Source of the DNA: a virus
Length of the DNA: 64,000 nucleotides
Direction: 5' to 3' (one strand)
Virus record (IMG/VR): IMGVR_UViG_3300032304_001168
A program made the position numbers and the translations under genes. The notes below the pieces were generated by a model. The model was not told the DNA's origin. It made no database searches and worked only from the letters and a program-made list of their open reading frames with translations. This document shows positions 4,600 to 40,918 of this stretch, piece by piece; positions within the stretch are counted from its first letter, which is position 1, and every line of letters begins with the position of its first letter.

Positions 4600-5801
4600 T
4601 TAAAGTTTTTTATTAATCCGTTTTGCCAATTCAGAAATTAATTCATCCTTGGTCTTTAACTTGGTGACAATTGGTGATTTTTTACCATATATTTTTTGAT
4701 ACATCTCCCAATCCCAAATTGATTTATTCTCTGTCATAGTTTTTTGATTTTGATATGTTAATTCATATAATCGACCCAATTTCTTAATCATCTTTGTTGC
4801 GGTATTTTTCATAAATTTAGCCTCATCAATATAAAATTTTTCATAATCATTTGCATATTTTTTAATCCTATTTGAATAAGTGATAATATAATCATCTTTG
4901 TCATCATTTACCATATGTTGAAATAAAGGGTTATTTCTACCCCTAGGATAAATAAATCCAATCATTTGTTGTTCTTTCCAATGTACAAGGTTAATATAAA
5001 ATAATTCAAGGATACTATCAATAGCCTCATTTTCAGTATTAACATACTCACCAACCTTATACAAAATCTCATAAATTTGAACCATATATTTTTTCAATGA
5101 GTCCTTTAAATTTTCCAATGAAAATTCTTTTGCCTCTTTTAATGTTTTAAAAATCTCATTACCAACAAAATAATTATAAAATTGTTTTGGGCTAATCTTT
5201 TCAAGATGAATTTCTGTTGCCAATTGTGTTGGTCTAACCAAATTCTCAATATGATGAATATAATATGAAAGAAATAAAAATCTATTCAAGGGTACTATGT
5301 TACCAAAGTTCTCATTGGCACTAATTTGATAATCAACCCTCATTGGTAAATTTGTTTTATTCTTCTTGAAAGCATCATAAGCATGTTTTAACTCATGTGC
5401 CATAATTGATATAAAACGATTTTTATTCTGTCGATAATAATCCAAAAATTCCTTATCCTCAAATTTTTCTGGAACAATAAACTCAATCCGAATTATTGTC
5501 TCATCTTCTTCAGCGAATACTTCCATTTGGAATTGGTCATTAACCGAAAAACGTAAACCTTGTGAAAAATTTAAAAGCCTAAATCCACTACCTTGAACTT
5601 CACGTAATTTTATCTCCAATTCAATTGTTGTCAATTTCATATCCGAAATTGCATAATCCCCACTTAACATGGTACTATATTCATCAAATAATTGAATATC
5701 ACTCAAATTAGATAAAAATCCATATATGTCATCATATAACTTAATCGCACTGGTATTATATTAACAGGTACCCCCAATGCTTCATTAATCTTTCTTCTCA
5801 T
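4600..5801 (-). pseudogene. HEXXH metallopeptidase-like gene with 1-nt frameshift near 5' end
   Basis: ATG at 5801 gives MRRKINEALGVPVNII behind TATTTAT; one missing base at ~5755 links it to the open frame ..TSAIKLYDDIYGFLSNLSDIQ of ORF 4600-5706; AHELKH motif. Confidence 0.65.
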
Positions 5802-17685: not shown

Positions 17686-17941
17686 TTATATTTTTTATAA
17701 GGTTTAACATTGTTTCATTCTCCATATAACCATCAAATTGTTCTCCGTGATTATCTATGGATAGAATATTATCGCCATTAATAGCGTCAAATACTTTGAT
17801 TGTTGGTTCTTTACTGACATAGACATTAAAATTACCCCATCTATATCTGATATAGAACATTCTTCCATCCTCAAAAGTTCCTTGCCATTGAGATGGAGAT
17901 ACCTCACAGGTTTTAATTAATTCTTTGATTTTGGGTTTCAT
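17657..17941 (-). CDS. Hypothetical protein (PSQW..YIRYRWG motif)
   Basis: 94-aa ORF. Confidence 0.7.
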   Translation of the reverse strand: MKPKIKELIKTCEVSPSQWQGTFEDGRMFYIRYRWGNFNVYVSKEPTIKVFDAINGDNILSIDNHGEQFDGYMENETMLNLIKNIIDYEQRTNG

Positions 17942-17999
17942 ATCTTTAATGTTGATTAAGATATATTATTGATTTTGTTGGGGTTAGGGTGAGTGGCGT

Positions 18000-18016
18000 A
18001 TATATACTAGTTATGT
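18000..18016 (+). mobile_element. attI-like site of orphan cassette array
   Basis: ATATACTAGTTATGT matches ATATTCTAGTTATAC next to the integrase; GTTATGTTT is complementary to AAACATAAC ending the first cassette. Confidence 0.6.
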
Positions 18017-18031
18017 TTAATTTTAAAAATT

Positions 18032-18328
18032 TTATGAATTTGTTTTATGCTTCGCAATCCACTCATCATAAGTTATTGAATTTTCATTTAGATATTTTTT
18101 AGATATATCAGCATTCCATTTTTTCATTTCTTCGTATGTCATTCCTTTCAATGCTAATGAACAATTTAAGTCAAATGAAAATTCAATACCACCAGTCCAA
18201 ATAACTTCATAAAAAACTGATGTGTCTTTGTGCCAATCATTACTGTTAATAGCATCACCATTCATTGTTATAAAAGCATCAGTTATTTGCTTCATATATG
18301 CTTCGTATTCTTTTTGATATTCTCTCAT
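18032..18328 (-). CDS. Cassette gene A, hypothetical
   Basis: 98 aa between the attI-like site and attC A. Confidence 0.75.
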   Translation of the reverse strand: MREYQKEYEAYMKQITDAFITMNGDAINSNDWHKDTSVFYEVIWTGGIEFSFDLNCSLALKGMTYEEMKKWNADISKKYLNENSITYDEWIAKHKTNS

Positions 18329-18359
18329 TTTTTATTTGTATAAAATTTTTAAAACTAAA

Positions 18360-18413
18360 ACATAACAACAAATATATTACATTAAAACGACAATATATTT
18401 GCGACCGTTAGTG
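18360..18413 (+). mobile_element. attC-like site A (54 bp)
   Basis: ACATAAC..CAAATATATT-AC-ATTAAAAC-GAC-AATATATTTG..GTTAGTG. Confidence 0.8.
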
Positions 18414-18418
18414 ATAAT

Positions 18419-18676
18419 TTATCTTCGTTTGTATAACATTTCCTTTTCTTCGTCAAAATGAAAATTGTTTTCTTTCGCAAAAGACCTAACCATTTTCTTA
18501 AACGCAACATATTCCCAAGTTGTTAGTTTTTCACTATTAAACAATTTTCTCATTTTGTGTAAAAGACCATTTTCGTTTCTTGTCGAACCATCTTGATATA
18601 AACTATCACTAACATCAGATATATTCAAGTTTTCTTCTGATTCGTTAAATCTTTTTATGTGTTTTAAATCTTTCAT
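18419..18676 (-). CDS. Cassette gene B, starts inside attC B, MKDLKHIKRFNE leader
   Basis: 85 aa; codons ISDVSDS cross the left box of attC B. Confidence 0.75.
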   Translation of the reverse strand: MKDLKHIKRFNESEENLNISDVSDSLYQDGSTRNENGLLHKMRKLFNSEKLTTWEYVAFKKMVRSFAKENNFHFDEEKEMLYKRR

Positions 18677-18743
18677 ATTATTAAATTATTTTTTTAGTAT
18701 ATATTAAAAAAGAAAACCTAAATATATCTGAATATCGTTAGGT
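18607..18743 (+). mobile_element. attC-like site B (137 bp)
   Basis: CACTAAC; TCAGATATATT (18615-25) pairs with AATATATCTGA (18721-31); GTTAGGT; TATCACTAAC complements GTTAGTGATA at the cassette start. Confidence 0.7.
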
Positions 18744-18962
18744 TTAATCATTAATTTGTTTTGAATCGCCTATCATATTTTTAATTCTATCAACTTCTGT
18801 TAAGTGTTTTTCAATTCGTTCTTTGAATCTATGTTCATATTCCTTATCAACTTCACCCAAGTCGGTTGTTTCAAGATATTTTTTAGGTAATCCTTTACCC
18901 ATAGTTTCCTTGAGTTTATTTTGAAAATACTCAAGTTCTTCGTTTGTGTTTTTATTTTCCAT
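18744..18962 (-). CDS. Cassette gene C, hypothetical
   Basis: 72 aa; own TACCTTTG -7 box at 18978-18985. Confidence 0.7.
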   Translation of the reverse strand: MENKNTNEELEYFQNKLKETMGKGLPKKYLETTDLGEVDKEYEHRFKERIEKHLTEVDRIKNMIGDSKQIND

Positions 18963-19003
18963 ATTCTATATTTTTTACAAAGGTAAAACAAATTAATGAC
19001 AAA

Positions 19004-19057
19004 ACCTAACAAATGATAAACAACATTAAAACGATTGTTTATCATCAGACGTTATAA
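19004..19057 (+). mobile_element. attC-like site C (54 bp)
   Basis: ACCTAAC..ATGATAAACAA-C-ATTAAAAC-GA-TTGTTTATCAT..GTTATAA. Confidence 0.8.
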
Positions 19058-19102
19058 AACATTTAAAGATTCATCATTTTTATAATTCCCTTTAGTATCA
19101 TA

Positions 19103-19492
19103 TCAGAACCATCCTGTTTTTTTTAATTCGTTAAGAAATGACCTAAAGTGTTTAATACCATTTTCATTCATTTCTTCTAACGCTTCCTTGATTGAATCAG
19201 GGTTATTTTCATAAACGCCTTTAATCCATTTCATATTATCCCAATAATCATCTTTCCAAGGTTTGATATTTTTATTAGTAAACTTTATATCAAAACCATC
19301 ATAGAAAGTTTCATTATCATCTTTGTATGTTCTTATGGCTTCCCAACTATAATCTTCATTTTCATAATGAGTACTTAATGATGTATGTATTTTTACATCA
19401 AGGAATTCAGGTTGTGGTTCAGTTTCTCTAACATACCAAACACCATCAATTTGTATTCTGTCTTTCATCTTATTTGTTTTTAACTTTATCAA
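19103..19492 (-). CDS. Hypothetical protein
   Basis: 129 aa (start may be MKDRIQ). Confidence 0.7.
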   Translation of the reverse strand: MIKLKTNKMKDRIQIDGVWYVRETEPQPEFLDVKIHTSLSTHYENEDYSWEAIRTYKDDNETFYDGFDIKFTNKNIKPWKDDYWDNMKWIKGVYENNPDSIKEALEEMNENGIKHFRSFLNELKKTGWF

Positions 19493-20540: not shown

Positions 20541-20633
20541 ATATTTGTGTTAGGTTCGATGTTTGTAATTTGTTTTGGATTAGTTATAGAAGTCGTTATA
20601 TTCTATATAAGTTTCATAATTATCAGTTTTTTG

Positions 20634-20745
20634 TAGTCCTGACAGGATTCGAACCTGCATTTGTATATATTTGTGACCTCGACTGCCGTTGTATCCTCAA
20701 ACTAAATCACCTGCCGATGTGCGTCTACCATTCCGCCACAGGACT
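20634..20745 (-). tRNA. Atypical tRNA-like RNA (Leu-type D arm, no canonical anticodon loop)
   Basis: Acceptor AGTCCTG/CAGGACT; D arm TGGCGGAATGGTAGACGC; T arm GCAGGTTCGAATCCTGT; ~112 nt. Confidence 0.75.
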
Positions 20746-20754
20746 ATTGTATCA

Positions 20755-32286: not shown

Positions 32287-33087
32287 TTAAATAGGTAAAT
32301 TTATTTTACTTAATAACTGATTTGAAACGTGTGTATAAATTTCAGTTGTTTTAACATTATTATGACCTGCAATCTTTTGAATTATTCTCAAATCCGTTCC
32401 ATTTTCTAATAAATTGGTGAAACAAGAATGTCTGAGTTGATGAATATGATATTCTTTACCTAAGTATTGCTTTACAATTTTATTACAACTCCCAAAACTA
32501 TATTTTAGATTATTTTGACCATTGAATAGATGGGTGATTGGTTTATATTCTTTATAATATTCTCTTAGAAGTTGTAGGATATTTTGTGATAGTGGAACAA
32601 TCCTATCTTTTCTACCTTTGGCATTTTTGATATGGATAATCATTCTTTTGGAATCAATATCTTCAATTTTGAGATTGACTACTTCTGACACTCTTAGACC
32701 TACTGAAAATGTTAGTGATAGTAGTGTCTTATGTTTTAGGTTTTTGATTTTGGAGAGTTGTTCTTTAATAAAATCACCATCAATAACTTTTGGAAGTTTC
32801 TTTTCTGATTTAGGTCTTTTGAAACTTACTTTATCATATTTTTTATCCAATCCAAATTTATAGAGAAATCTGATTGCGTTAATGATTTGGTTTTGTTGAG
32901 AAACTGAGGTGAAGTTATAGTTATCTAAATAAGATTGAAAATCTTGAGAGGTTAATCTAGTTGGTGATGTTTTATTATTTTCTAAAAACTGATTGATGTA
33001 AAAAAGATAGGACTTGATTGTCCTATCTGAGTAATTTAAGTATTTCAATTTTTGATTACAAATTTCGTAGTAATTTGTCTTTTTCAT
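32287..33087 (-). CDS. Tyrosine recombinase (integron-integrase-like, lacks IntI insertion)
   Basis: YSDRTIKSY SAM-like N-terminus; GLRVSE, KGRKDR, HQLRH, GTDLRIIQKIAGH, TTEIY catalytic set intact. Confidence 0.92.
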   Translation of the reverse strand: MKKTNYYEICNQKLKYLNYSDRTIKSYLFYINQFLENNKTSPTRLTSQDFQSYLDNYNFTSVSQQNQIINAIRFLYKFGLDKKYDKVSFKRPKSEKKLPKVIDGDFIKEQLSKIKNLKHKTLLSLTFSVGLRVSEVVNLKIEDIDSKRMIIHIKNAKGRKDRIVPLSQNILQLLREYYKEYKPITHLFNGQNNLKYSFGSCNKIVKQYLGKEYHIHQLRHSCFTNLLENGTDLRIIQKIAGHNNVKTTEIYTHVSNQLLSKINLPI

Positions 33088-33128
33088 TGTCTAAATCATT
33101 AATTATCAAGGTTTTGAAATAGGTGTTG

Positions 33129-33145
33129 ATATATTCTAGTTATAC
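33129..33145 (+). mobile_element. attI-like site
   Basis: ATATATTCTAGTTATAC about 50 bp 5' of the integrase start; GTTATACT complements AGTATAAC ending cassette 1. Confidence 0.65.
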
Positions 33146-33157
33146 TCAATTAAAAAA

Positions 33158-33389: not shown

Positions 33390-33443
33390 GTATAACAAAG
33401 AATATGTGTCATTAAAACGAACACATATTCTCAACCGTTATGT
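33390..33443 (+). mobile_element. attC-like site 1 (54 bp)
   Basis: GTATAAC..AGAATATGTGT-C-ATTAAAAC-GA-ACACATATTCT..GTTATGT. Confidence 0.82.
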
Positions 33444-33510: not shown

Positions 33511-34503
33511 CTATTTTTTAATTACTAAATAATTTTTATTTTCTTTATTTGAATATAACTCATATTTTGGGTTAGTTGAAACAAGTTCATCATTATTTGG
33601 TTTAACATCAAAATATTCATCATTTTTTTCATTATAACCCATAATTTTATATTTACCATATAACTTAACCCATAATTTTCTTGCTTCTGGTGTTTGCATT
33701 TTATCTGAATATAATATAGTTTTATTTATAATATAGTCATACGCCTTTGTCGCAACACCTAAACCCCTTGCTGTGTCTTTAACGCCAAGTGTTGATATTT
33801 TATATCCATTATGAAATTTATTTAACCCTACATAACCAATAGGTAAATCATCATTATATATAATTAATTTAACACCATCACTATTTTCAGCCCATTGAAA
33901 CCCTAGCCCAGAGAATTTATCAATTGATTTCGTTATTTTATCTGCTTCACCCTTCGCCCAATCCACAAATTCATTGTAATCAATTTTACCACCTACTAAA
34001 GAAGTGGTTCTCTTGATTTCATTAATTGGGTTATAATTTAGTGGTAATGGGTAATTACCTTGTTCCAAATTTTTAGAATCCCAAAATTCAGTTTTTAATT
34101 TTATATTATCCCAAAAATTGTTTTCTTTATCTAAAAAATTTTTAATTAAATAAATTGCCGAAATTCTATGAGCACCATCTTGTAAACTACCATCAACCAC
34201 AATTATCGGTGGTAAATTTTTTGTTGATTTTGGGTTTTTTATTATATAATTAGCATATTCTAACACCTTTTTCGTTACACCCCAACTATAATCTTTATCA
34301 ATTACATCACTTAATACCTCTCTATAATAAGGTATATTTTTTATTCTATTTGTAATTTCATCAACAGTTAGAAACTTTATATTAGTTGGTTTAGAATTTT
34401 TCTTAAATTCTGCTGGTTTTCCAGAACTTTCACCAGATTGTGGGATATTCTCATTCAAAAAATCTCTAATTGTGGTTTTAATAAATTGTTTCAAATTTTT
34501 CAT
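33511..34503 (-). CDS. Cassette gene 2: leader + ParB/Srx-like domain + GNAT-like domain
   Basis: MKNLKQFIKTTIRDFLNE; LPPIIVVDG..DGAHRI; ARGLGVATKAY..QTPEARKLW. Confidence 0.7.
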   Translation of the reverse strand: MKNLKQFIKTTIRDFLNENIPQSGESSGKPAEFKKNSKPTNIKFLTVDEITNRIKNIPYYREVLSDVIDKDYSWGVTKKVLEYANYIIKNPKSTKNLPPIIVVDGSLQDGAHRISAIYLIKNFLDKENNFWDNIKLKTEFWDSKNLEQGNYPLPLNYNPINEIKRTTSLVGGKIDYNEFVDWAKGEADKITKSIDKFSGLGFQWAENSDGVKLIIYNDDLPIGYVGLNKFHNGYKISTLGVKDTARGLGVATKAYDYIINKTILYSDKMQTPEARKLWVKLYGKYKIMGYNEKNDEYFDVKPNNDELVSTNPKYELYSNKENKNYLVIKK

Positions 34504-34613
34504 TGTTTTCTTTTATATAAATATTAAGATTTAAAAAAACCACACTTCTTTTTCTTTTAAATTTTTTGTTTAGTTCTTCGATTAAACATTCTACCTTAAT
34601 TAACCACACCTAC

Positions 34614-34707
34614 ACATAACAAGGTGTATAAGAAAGTTTGCTATAAAGTTTAGTGGTAATTTGAAAGTTCATCTAAGCAAACCTTCTCATACACCCAAAC
34701 GTTATAC
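34614..34707 (+). mobile_element. attC-like site 2 (94 bp)
   Basis: ACATAAC; 18/20-bp stem GGTGTATAAGAAAGTTTGCT / AGCAAACCTTCTCATACACC; GTTATAC; CACCTACACATAAC complements GTTATGTGTAAGTG (13/14). Confidence 0.82.
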
Positions 34708-38211: not shown

Positions 38212-39033
38212 TTATTTGATATTTTTAAAAATATGTGTTATAACATCTATAGTCCACCCATTCCCAAGTAATTTAAACCTTTCGGTGTTTGAAACTCCTC
38301 TAGTATAATTTAATGGCATTGTTTGTAATAGTTCACAATCTTGTGGTGTATATTTGTATATCTGACCTAATTCATTTTTACAATAAGATGAAATCTGTCC
38401 TTTATACATTGATGCTGTTAAACAAGATGCTTTATCACTATATGACTTAACAACATCCTTTCTTGTTCCCCTACCATAAAAAGGTAAATCTAAATAGTTT
38501 GGATATTTGTCCTTAAATTCTGGAGAGATAATATCACAAATATTTAATCCCAAGTCTTTTGGTTGTGTTATATTTGGGATATTTGTCCAATATAACCTTG
38601 GTCTATTTTGAGCTGAAACCAATCTACTATTAATCTTAATCGGTTTGACACCAAGGTGTTCAGTGATTACATCTTGCCATTCTTCTCTCATTACAACATT
38701 CTCCAATAAAAAATATTTTGGTTTAACTTCTTTTAATAGTCTAACATACTCAAAGAATAATTTACTCCTTGGGTCATTGAAATTCAATTGTTTCCCTACC
38801 TTTGAAAATCCTTGGCAAGGCGACCCACCTATGAGAAGGTCTATTGGTGGTAAATCACTTCCTTTAATTTCTGTTATATCACCCAATTGAATTGTGTTGG
38901 GATAATTTTGTTGTGTAACCTTAATTGAACTTTTATCAATCTCGGATGCAAAATACTTATCATATTTTATTCTAATTCTATTTAGGGCAATTTGACCACA
39001 ACTTAACCCATCAAAAAGACTTAATACATTCAT
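38212..39033 (-). CDS. C5 cytosine DNA methyltransferase
   Basis: SLFDG, GSPCQ, ENV, QNRPR, GNGW. Confidence 0.93.
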   Translation of the reverse strand: MNVLSLFDGLSCGQIALNRIRIKYDKYFASEIDKSSIKVTQQNYPNTIQLGDITEIKGSDLPPIDLLIGGSPCQGFSKVGKQLNFNDPRSKLFFEYVRLLKEVKPKYFLLENVVMREEWQDVITEHLGVKPIKINSRLVSAQNRPRLYWTNIPNITQPKDLGLNICDIISPEFKDKYPNYLDLPFYGRGTRKDVVKSYSDKASCLTASMYKGQISSYCKNELGQIYKYTPQDCELLQTMPLNYTRGVSNTERFKLLGNGWTIDVITHIFKNIK

Positions 39034-39851
39034 AATTTAATATTTTTAAAAATATGTGCAATTACATCAACAGTCCAACCATTGCCAATCATTTTGTATC
39101 TTTCTGTGTTACTAACAACAGATGTATACCCTTCTGGTATTGTCTGTAATTTCTCAAATTCAGTTGGGTTTAATAATCTACATAAAGTTTTATCCTCGTT
39201 GAAGAGATATTGATTTGTGTGACAATTCTTGGTGGTTAAACAATTTGATTTCTCATTCTTAACCCAATTAGGATTTTTATTTATTCTTTCTTTTGTTCCC
39301 CATTTATTATAAAAACATTTTGGTATTTCTCTAAACTTGTCATCAGTTAATACATCAGATAGTTTAATCTTCTTATCTTCAGGTTGGGTTATGTTTGGAA
39401 TGTTTGTCCAATATAATCTGTCCCTATTTTGACCAGATACTAGATTACTATTAATTCTTATAGGTTCAACACCCATTTCCTTTGTGATGATGTCTTCCCA
39501 TTCTTTTTTCATCTTTACATTTTCAAGTAAAAAATATTTGGGCTGAACTTCATTTAGGACTCTAACAAATTCCCAAAATAAACCACTCTTTCCATCAAAA
39601 CCTGTTCTGTTACCTGCTGATGAAAAACTTTGACAAGGACTCCCACCAAATAAGATATCTATTTTTGGTAAATCAGAACCTTTGATATTATTAATATTAC
39701 CTAACTGAATCGTGTTAGGATAGTTGTGTTGAGTTACTTTAATTGCGTGAACATCAATCTCAGAAGCATAATAGTTATCGTAACTAATCCCAACTTTATT
39801 TAAAGCGATTTGGCCACAACTTAACCCATCAAACAAACTCAGTACATTCAT
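39030..39851 (-). CDS. C5 cytosine DNA methyltransferase
   Basis: SLFDG, GSPCQ, ENV, QNRDR, GNGW. Confidence 0.93.
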   Translation of the reverse strand: MNVLSLFDGLSCGQIALNKVGISYDNYYASEIDVHAIKVTQHNYPNTIQLGNINNIKGSDLPKIDILFGGSPCQSFSSAGNRTGFDGKSGLFWEFVRVLNEVQPKYFLLENVKMKKEWEDIITKEMGVEPIRINSNLVSGQNRDRLYWTNIPNITQPEDKKIKLSDVLTDDKFREIPKCFYNKWGTKERINKNPNWVKNEKSNCLTTKNCHTNQYLFNEDKTLCRLLNPTEFEKLQTIPEGYTSVVSNTERYKMIGNGWTVDVIAHIFKNIKL

Positions 39852-40918
39852 AATTCTATGTTTTTAAATATATGTGTTATTACATCAACTGTCCATCCAT
39901 TACCTAACATCTTTCTTGCTTGACTATCACTTACAACATTAGTATATCCATCAGGTATTGTTTGTAGTCTTTCCATTTCAATTCGATAAAGTTTTCTGTA
40001 TTTCCAAGTTGGGTCAACAATATAATCCAATGGACTTTCAACGGTAACTAAACAATTTCCTTTGTTATTTTTATTTGGGACATACATCTTAAATTCTTTA
40101 CTCCTTGGAGTTGAATCTCTACCAGTTTCAATTCTTATTTTTCTCCTCATTTCTTTACCCTCCTTAGTTCTAGTTTCATAAAATGAAAATGGTACTTCGT
40201 TTGATAAATCTATATTAACTCTTTTTCCATTATTAGCATATAGTGTTACAATACCATCATCATTAATGGTTATAGGACTACCATAAGATTTAGTTAATGA
40301 ATCTATTTTTTCATCAATAGTCATATTACAGGGGTCATCAACAATGATATCTTTTAAAGTAATTTCTTTGTCTATTGGTTGATTAATATTTGGAATATTA
40401 GTCCAATATAATCTTCTTCTATTTTGGGCCGATACCAAAGTTGAGTTTATTTCAATTGGTTCTAATCCCAATACATTGTTTATTATGGTTTCCCACTTCT
40501 TTAACATTTTAACATTTTCTAATAAAAAATATTTTGGTTTAACTTCTTTTAATAGTCTTACATATTCCCAAAACAAATATGATTGTCCTTGAAAGTTAAA
40601 TCCATTTCTTTTTAAATCCAAATATTGTTCTAATGTTAATATTTCAATATCTTCTTTTGTTGACATCCCTTTCATCTTACCAGCAAATGAAAGATTTTGA
40701 CAGGGTAATCCACCACACATTAATGTAATTGTTGGTAAATCACTCCCATTTATTTGTGTAATATCCCCCAATTGAATCGTGTTAGGATAGTTGTGTTGGG
40801 TTACTTTGATACTATGTTTATCTACCTCAGATGCGTAATAATTATCATATTTAATTCCAGCACGATTCAATGCGATTTGTCCACAACTCATCCCATCAAA
40901 AAGACTCAGTACATTCAT
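39848..40918 (-). CDS. C5 cytosine DNA methyltransferase
   Basis: SLFDG, GLPCQ, ENV, QNRRR, GNGW; longer target-recognition region. Confidence 0.93.
   Translation of the reverse strand: MNVLSLFDGMSCGQIALNRAGIKYDNYYASEVDKHSIKVTQHNYPNTIQLGDITQINGSDLPTITLMCGGLPCQNLSFAGKMKGMSTKEDIEILTLEQYLDLKRNGFNFQGQSYLFWEYVRLLKEVKPKYFLLENVKMLKKWETIINNVLGLEPIEINSTLVSAQNRRRLYWTNIPNINQPIDKEITLKDIIVDDPCNMTIDEKIDSLTKSYGSPITINDDGIVTLYANNGKRVNIDLSNEVPFSFYETRTKEGKEMRRKIRIETGRDSTPRSKEFKMYVPNKNNKGNCLVTVESPLDYIVDPTWKYRKLYRIEMERLQTIPDGYTNVVSDSQARKMLGNGWTVDVITHIFKNIEL

Follow-up and report, generated by a model that had tools for sequence, protein, structure and literature searches.

The hairpin element at positions 18607–18743 (minus strand, 137 nt) is, with a probability of roughly 0.7, an attC-type recombination site of a 330-bp gene cassette that belongs to an integron-like system of huge phages, its loop holding the front end of the cassette's own gene. 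The cassette (18408–18737, minus strand), which comprises the leader hairpin and a payload and was delimited by junctions between related contigs and by its complementary ends, would sit within a three-cassette array of such a system in huge AT-rich phages. Relative to classical integron cassettes, the cassette genes are on the other strand; hence, each hairpin precedes its gene.

The window, by which we mean the whole 64-kb stretch of viral DNA that was analysed, is AT-rich (G+C ~28 %), and its minus strand holds nearly all of the genes. SmpB, a LAGLIDADG protein and a tyrosine recombinase are encoded in it, nine of its large ORFs matched no Pfam family and ARAGORN returned zero tRNA genes for the window. 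Among deposited phages, only the uncultured 462-kb LR756500.1 is related to it at the DNA level, and the window is therefore best read as a piece of a huge phage genome; the host phylum of these huge phages is probably Bacteroidota. Among GenBank phage records, the element was found in none except LR756500.1, the cultured phages being without it. Elsewhere in the window, positions 20627–20748 are 92.6 % identical to positions 4952–5073 of locus L117 and have a translation with tRNA-like motifs, in which ARAGORN calls no tRNA, and positions 38212–40918 hold three tandem paralogous ORFs (273, 273 and 356 aa) with almost identical N-termini, which by motif reading look like cytosine-5 DNA methyltransferases.

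Read along the minus strand, the element consists of a box, a 5-nt spacer, a 22-nt arm, a 73-nt loop, a second 22-nt arm, a single base and a second box. The 5′ box ACCTAAC (18737–18743; GTTAGGT on the plus strand), in which the crossover is predicted to fall at 18738/18737, lies immediately next to the upstream gene's stop codon (18746–18744) and matches RYYYAAC in full, while the 3′ box GTTAGTG (18613 to 18607) matches GTTRRRY at 5/7 positions. The unpaired spacer GATAT (18732–18736) has a partner of only 1 nt on the 3′ side, which gives an asymmetric bulge. Between the 5′ arm (18710–18731), which is kept in sister elements, and the 3′ arm (18615–18636) lies the loop (18637–18709), containing an AT-rich tract (18707–18697), the ATG (18676–18674) and leader codons 1–13. 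Over their full length, the arms form 20 Watson–Crick pairs and two G·T pairs on the minus strand. Folding with DNA parameters favoured the sense strand (−17.2 kcal/mol, z −3.5, vs −13.7 for the antisense strand), as it did for the site of a cassette circularised in silico (sense −24.7, z −6.2, vs antisense −20.0).

The first-pass annotation had described an attC-like site carrying the start and leader of its own cassette gene, with an 11-bp stem around ~95 nt, an ATG at 18676 inside the loop and an ORF that passes through the stem and box. All of these features were recovered. Perfect 11-bp arms (18615–18625/18721–18731) do enclose 95 nt, and a repeat search extended them to 22 nt (18615–18636/18710–18731; 91 % complementary, 73 nt between), making the true arms twice as long. 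The ATG starts an 85-aa ORF (18419–18676, minus strand) composed of a 25-aa leader and a 60-aa payload. The 3′ arm is translated as leader residues 14–21 (E E N L N I S D), and the frame runs from N18 through I, S and D into V22 (GTT, 18613–18611), S23, D24 and S25, the last four being encoded by the 3′ box and its extension to AGT (18602–18613). Positions 5–9 of this extended box differ between cassettes, and the AGT is nearly invariant. Membership of the site in an attC-like family, the remaining part of that description, was confirmed by the relatives described next.

A pattern scan of viral contigs yielded at least 120 loci with TAAC...GTTA hairpins. A simple detector run on these loci and the window (1.1 Mb of related phage DNA) returned 311 hairpins, compared with 22 in a shuffled control, and spacers of 5 nt and 1–3 nt on opposite sides of the stem are the rule across the 311 sites. 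From box to box, the hairpins fall into three size classes of ~48, 80–90 and 110–135 nt. When 40 long-class elements, including 18607–18743, were aligned, both ends aligned well, TAAC and GTTA were invariant (40/40) and RNAalifold predicted 24 pairs, 17 of which show compensatory changes on both sides. Two G·T pairs were kept in 38/40 sequences, on the sense strand only, and the 5 vs 1–3 nt bulge was constant, with no defined extrahelical bases seen in the stem. The window itself contains three 54-nt elements (18360–18413, 19004–19057 and 33390–33443) with the same boxes and asymmetric spacers and an identical 11-nt loop; their stems differ, yet each is complementary. The element at 18607–18743 accordingly does belong to a family of attC-like hairpins. 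Two contigs binned as Methanolobus sp. (L138 and L147) hold 10 and 14 hairpin sites per ~5.5 kb; these dense arrays in an archaeal genome bin are probably mis-binned phage DNA.

Among hairpins of the long size class, a gene start within the loop is the norm. Of 76 distinct elements of 106–145 nt, 54 hold an ATG with an ORF (at least 35 aa required) that exits via the 3′ arm and box, compared with 5/76 in the antisense control, and GTT is in frame as Val in 47 of these 54. Such starts are rare in the short and middle size classes. In other cassettes of the window, an upstream motif and leader directly follow the hairpin, as at 34611–34707, which is followed by an ATG at 34503.

No Pfam or PHROG family matched the cassette proteins. 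Full-length homologues of the 85-aa protein showed 66–100 % identity, and a protein search gave 467 matches. Among 121 retrieved proteins, 105 carry the first 22 leader residues (defined as at least 18/22 identical), on 72 unrelated payload families, a number that is a lower bound; a single leader carrier exceeds 149 aa. D-V is followed by two variable residues (S-D in 73 proteins, otherwise S-G, S-N, I-D, R-S or further pairs) and then, almost without exception, by Ser, beyond which no similarity remains. It had been suggested at first pass that C-termini would diverge precisely after D-V. The outcome agreed with this main prediction, more than 100 proteins sharing the leader and then being unrelated, with variation setting in directly behind GTTA; the constant part, however, does not stop at D-V and reaches the almost invariant Ser25 (AGT). 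This invariance is explained by the AGT belonging to the extended box that pairs with the far end of the cassette. Nor do the homologues lose the upstream complementary arm: sister copies retain it while their C-termini differ.

Across leader subfamilies, the arm-encoded peptide is the best-conserved part of the leader, and the other subfamilies share a common peptide motif only in these arm-encoded residues, with some of their leaders heading otherwise complete-looking DNA methyltransferases. The payload of the 85-aa gene is also preceded, in L122 and L124, by two further leader loops whose arms are the same, and L127 has a payload homologue that lacks both leader and inverted repeats and stands as a normal gene in T4-like surroundings. 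The constancy of the leader would mainly reflect DNA-level constraints of the site combined with a tolerated N-terminal extension. A decayed copy of the element was detected downstream of a tyrosinase gene in L224 (1440–1580 and 1915–1950); it has lost its 5′ box and the outer half of its 5′ arm but retains leader, extended box and far-end repeat. A Lar restriction-alleviation protein (L222, 2304–2537) and DNA methyltransferases (L037, L026, L068 and L095) are leader-fused in sister cassettes, suggesting that the arrays store anti-restriction functions.

The ends of the cassette are complementary to each other. The inner cassette-end repeat (18598–18613) pairs with the outer repeat (18407–18422) over 16 nt (94 %, 15/16), the latter holding the stop codon of the cassette gene (18421–18419) and the 5′ box of the next hairpin. 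Other cassettes with the 18607–18743 leader have end repeats matching at 18/20 and 19/20 positions, and an AGT-versus-ATT G·T wobble on the sense strand recurs in these repeats. Across the family, the sequence after GTTA is the reverse complement of that before the next TAAC in 116 of 186 consecutive site pairs (chance expectation, 14.7 of 186), whereas the flanks of one and the same hairpin do not match (26/309).

Junctions between near-identical contigs place the crossover at the 5′ box. Four contig pairs (L102/L073, L122/L123, L004/L040 and L070/L089) break there, the shared block, in gene direction, ending in TAAC twice and starting there twice, and homology to LR756500.1 begins at 18738, one base past the G of the box on the plus strand. 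No unambiguous junction was found at the payload-side (3′) box among near-identical contigs, the single break at a 3′ box being ambiguous. The first-pass placement of the crossover at the payload-side left box is therefore not supported, the junctions favouring 18737/18738 at the other box. As the junctions lie at the 5′ box, hairpin and downstream gene would move as one unit (18408–18737). We also considered movement of the payload with the hairpin downstream of it, which was rejected: that hairpin differs between the window, L122 and L124, and the junctions precede it. The occurrence of one payload behind three leader loops (window, L122 and L124) is not explained by a single crossover point, and loop swapping on one payload indicates some extra exchange inside the conserved arms or beside the hairpin, for which homologous recombination within the arms would be the simplest explanation. 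The constant leader on so many payloads resembles the homogeneous attC repeats of chromosomal integrons and appears not to stem from crossing over at the Val codon.

The cassette has neighbours on both sides. Downstream in gene direction, a 54-nt hairpin (18360–18413, minus strand) heads the next cassette (gene 18032–18328), and upstream, a second (19004–19057, minus strand), which recurs almost unchanged 53 times in other contigs, heads cassette 18738–19052 (gene 18744–18962). The array is closed by a hairpin-less terminal site (17985–18017, minus strand) that resembles a conserved site upstream of recombinase genes. In eight aligned loci, this hairpin-less site follows the last TAAC box, ~70 nt before the recombinase ATG in the window (window 33088–33157, with 17985–18017 as a second window copy; L027, L083, L004, L116, L051, L020 and L030), and is a candidate for a primary (attI-like) site. 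We also examined whether the inverted cassette ends could be those of a MITE or of an IS200/IS605-type element, and rejected this, as no HUH transposase was found in the Pfam-scanned ORFs of the window and the arrays are consistently linked to a tyrosine recombinase.

The sole candidate enzyme in the window is a 266-aa tyrosine recombinase of the Xer/IntI superfamily (32287–33087, minus strand), with the SAM-like and catalytic domains of Xer/IntI recombinases. It has a hairpin array and terminal site of its own (33139–33145, 33390–33443 and 34611–34707), while the array containing 18607–18743 adjoins no recombinase, the nearest being 14 kb off. The protein scores below the cut-offs of XerA, IntI, XerC and XerD (for the IntI model TIGR02249, 154 bits, cut-off 265, with the match in two blocks), can be aligned over its whole length with archaeal XerA-type structures and is collinear with XerA and XerC-like structures. 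Relative to VchIntIA, it is ~48 residues short between the two match blocks, an interval that we take to be that of the IntI-specific domain. Homologues occur in 12 other loci, with the array always on the 5′ side of the recombinase gene and in one orientation, and one recombinase-linked array contains a cassette with the 18607–18743 leader beside the Lar restriction-alleviation cassette. On the plus strand, the order of recombinase gene, primary site and hairpins is that of classical integron geometry with the cassette genes inverted, the ORFs of phage loci being on the other strand for 229/266 sites. In LR756500.1, the recombinase is present only as an 88-aa fragment.

Relatives of the short hairpins were also found in bacterial chromosomes. 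The short hairpin pattern hit 82 genome contigs, overwhelmingly of Bacteroidota and including cultured Flavobacteriia, a phylum described in integron surveys as almost without integrons (PMC9024848). The hairpin detector passed 49 of the 82 loci, and the other 33 are probably chance matches to the pattern. All nine loci from cultured isolates (9/9) have the canonical orientation of ORF followed by attC, opposite to the phage arrangement. Eudoraea adriatica DSM 19308 (L184, 1109–5731) has three sites, with serine-hydrolase, amidohydrolase and HigB-toxin genes between or beside them, and further Flavobacteriia chromosome loci (L131 and L190/L208) have the conserved short loop, with genes in front of the hairpin. 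No canonical IntI was found by the bacterial arrays, the best candidates (five isolates) scoring below the cut-off and having no hairpin array within ~1.5 kb.

With regard to expression, the AT-rich tract (18707–18697) lies 20 nt ahead of the ATG. A 9-nt AT-rich motif, ATATTTATA, is ~10-fold enriched within 45 nt upstream of gene starts window-wide, mostly 11–26 nt before the ATG and at 18–19 of 88 genes (e.g. 34516–34524, 29909, 28579 and 4566), and is likely to be a phage promoter element. The motif is present in the loops of sister elements, with only a weaker variant in the 18607–18743 copy. No sigma-70-type promoter was predicted in the loop, and neither a terminator-like site nor a known RNA family was found in 17900–19200. 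We infer that the loop supplies signals for the start of both transcription and translation. The leader itself has F-N-E at residues 10–12, fitting the (I/L/F)xE endings of many amphipathic leaders in this genome, and may possibly have a targeting role. LR756500.1 encodes a T4 gp21-type prohead protease domain (Peptidase_S77, 44.8 bits; 228195–228539, L219) inside a 635-aa frame.

Integron cassettes are normally promoterless genes followed by a recombination site, and attC sites, of about 57–141 bp, carry RYYYAAC...GTTRRRY boxes and are conserved in structure rather than in sequence. The phage sites share with attC the imperfect hairpins of 54–140 nt between ...AAC and GTT... boxes and a conserved core with both flanks variable. 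As in integron cassettes, the start of the cassette complements its own far box, and crossover evidence is confined to one box; as in integrons, the arrays lie in one orientation by a tyrosine recombinase and a hairpin-less terminal site, with integrase-less arrays also occurring. The related sites in bacterial chromosomes follow their ORFs, like attC. However, unlike in integrons, the phage genes lie on the opposite strand so that the site precedes the gene, and the box pairing extends over 12–26 nt. Unlike attC, the phage site holds an ATG and leader in its loop, an asymmetric bulge replaces defined extrahelical bases, and the short class has a conserved loop. The phage recombinase is Xer-like, lacking the extra domain of IntI. 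In the CTX phage, an Xer-type recombinase acts on a hairpin of single-stranded phage DNA, although there it is the host XerCD and the outcome is integration at dif, not cassette shuffling.

Three published phage systems are also relevant. Integrase-less clusters of attC-like sites have been reported by Qi et al. (2023) in virulent phages, including a Polaribacter (Bacteroidota) phage, with methyltransferase cassettes among the cargo; detection there relied on the standard attC model, with IntI1 used to test the sites, and the sections consulted describe no phage Xer-like recombinase, inverted genes or in-site gene start (PMC9892861). The PeSLs of T4-type phages combine a promoter, a stem-loop and a start codon and generate mini-circles (Arbiol et al. 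2010, PMC2839356). Like the elements described here, they are repeated stem-loop/start-codon modules before small ORFans, in hyperplastic regions with modular shuffling; unlike the phage hairpins, they are thought to recombine by homology, and the portions consulted describe no recombinase, boxes or complementary cassette ends, nor a shared N-terminal peptide, the PeSL module stopping at the downstream start codon (PMC2839356). The sigma-70 early promoter and terminator that mark a PeSL were found neither in the loop nor in 17900–19200, respectively. Finally, the capsid-targeting sequence of T-even phages is likewise a short conserved N-terminus on unrelated, fast-evolving small proteins (PMC3012670), but it is a demonstrated protein signal, whereas the leader here is known from sequence and its conservation is mostly explained by the DNA site.

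Several other explanations of the element were weighed. In a genome of ~28 % G+C, short palindromes are common and the inverted repeat could be a product of chance; however, a repeat of this quality (at least 20/22, loop 20–150 nt) was observed once in the 64-kb window compared with 0.025 per shuffled window (one match in 40 shuffles), the arms and boxes are kept in at least 14 sister elements and the stem covaries across the family. Together, these refute a chance palindrome, to which we assign a negligible probability. A regulatory cassette of the PeSL kind, shuffled by homology, with the stem acting as a terminator or attenuator and the recombinase incidental, would account for the exchange of leader loops relative to the payload: conserved arms of at least 22 nt offer enough homology for phage recombinases, and PeSLs are known to join promoter, stem-loop and start codon and to make mini-circles (PMC2839356). 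We nonetheless regard this as decidedly unlikely: shuffling by homology gives no reason for each cassette to have complementary ends of its own, for TAAC and GTTA to be invariant and accompanied by an asymmetric bulge, for junctions to lie at the box or for 12 loci to show one fixed arrangement with a tyrosine recombinase and a conserved terminal site. In addition, the terminator-like site was not found (17900–19200). Alternatively, the hairpin could function in RNA, a long-range stem in read-through transcripts enclosing the start codon and controlling translation or stability. The sense-strand-only G·T (G·U) pairs at two positions in 38/40 sequences, the better folding of the sense strand and a 5′ arm that begins right behind the upstream stop codon all fit such a role, but G·T pairs favour folding of sense single-stranded DNA equally, bacterial copies of this hairpin type lie opposite to the gene strand, and the complementary ends, recombinase linkage and box junctions are left unexplained. 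As a full explanation, this is very unlikely; an RNA-level role is nevertheless compatible with an attC-type site and does not exclude it.

The first-pass annotation offered a further alternative, in which crossover at the payload-side box swaps payloads behind a fixed targeting leader; in the form weighed here, the crossover falls at G/TT of the Val codon and the leader is a protein-targeting tag, e.g. for capsid loading, that is cleaved after F-N-E. Divergence from position 5 of the GTTA box onward fits this proposal, as do the single payload behind three leader loops, the many genome proteins that begin with amphipathic leaders ending in (I/L/F)xE, the gp21-type protease domain encoded in LR756500.1 and the precedent of T-even internal proteins, a diverse cargo that shares only the capsid-targeting sequence (PMC3012670). 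Conversely, among near-identical contigs the payload box has zero unambiguous junctions compared with four at the other box, constancy to Ser25, mirrored at the far end of the cassette, is what a box lying within the cassette would lead one to expect, and other subfamilies share only the arm-encoded peptide, some heading complete-looking DNA methyltransferases. A targeting function for the leader must also be set against the decayed L224 copy, which retains the leader without the hairpin. On balance, we consider payload exchange at the Val codon rather unlikely. The attC-type interpretation has difficulties of its own, namely a recombinase that lacks the IntI extra domain and scores below the IntI and Xer cut-offs, its distance from the array (14 kb to the nearest), the recurrence of the same payload behind three leader loops, and a loop in which no sigma-70 promoter is predicted and the enriched motif is present as a weaker variant.

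Under the attC-type interpretation, the loop of the ~110–140-nt class would have taken over the front end of the gene, i.e. the AT-rich upstream tract, the ATG and ~13 codons, with translation predicted to pass through the 3′ arm and GTTA box (GTT as Val, two variable residues, Ser) into the payload. The recombinase would cut the folded sense strand between the A and C of the 5′ box (18738/18737), and hairpin and payload would then travel as a single unit. More tentatively, and at low odds, the huge phages of Bacteroidota may have a gene-capture system of their own, with a compact Xer-like enzyme and plug-and-play hairpin front ends, in which whatever coding fragment is captured would be expressed as an in-frame fusion and the leader would route small, rapidly replaced proteins, among them anti-defence cargo such as the Lar and methyltransferase proteins of sister cassettes, into the capsid for injection.

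The integron-like system of huge phages is widespread and previously unrecognised. It adds huge phages and Bacteroidota, a phylum regarded as nearly devoid of integrons, to the range of cassette systems, and implies that folded hairpin sites may be processed by an Xer-like enzyme lacking the IntI-specific domain. The restriction-alleviation and methyltransferase genes in sister cassettes provide a link to phage–host conflict. A site that stands before its gene, giving a start codon and 25 residues to at least 72 payloads, represents a distinct way to express captured genes, and the exact in-frame junctions between constant site and payload offer a handle on the long-standing question of cassette origin.
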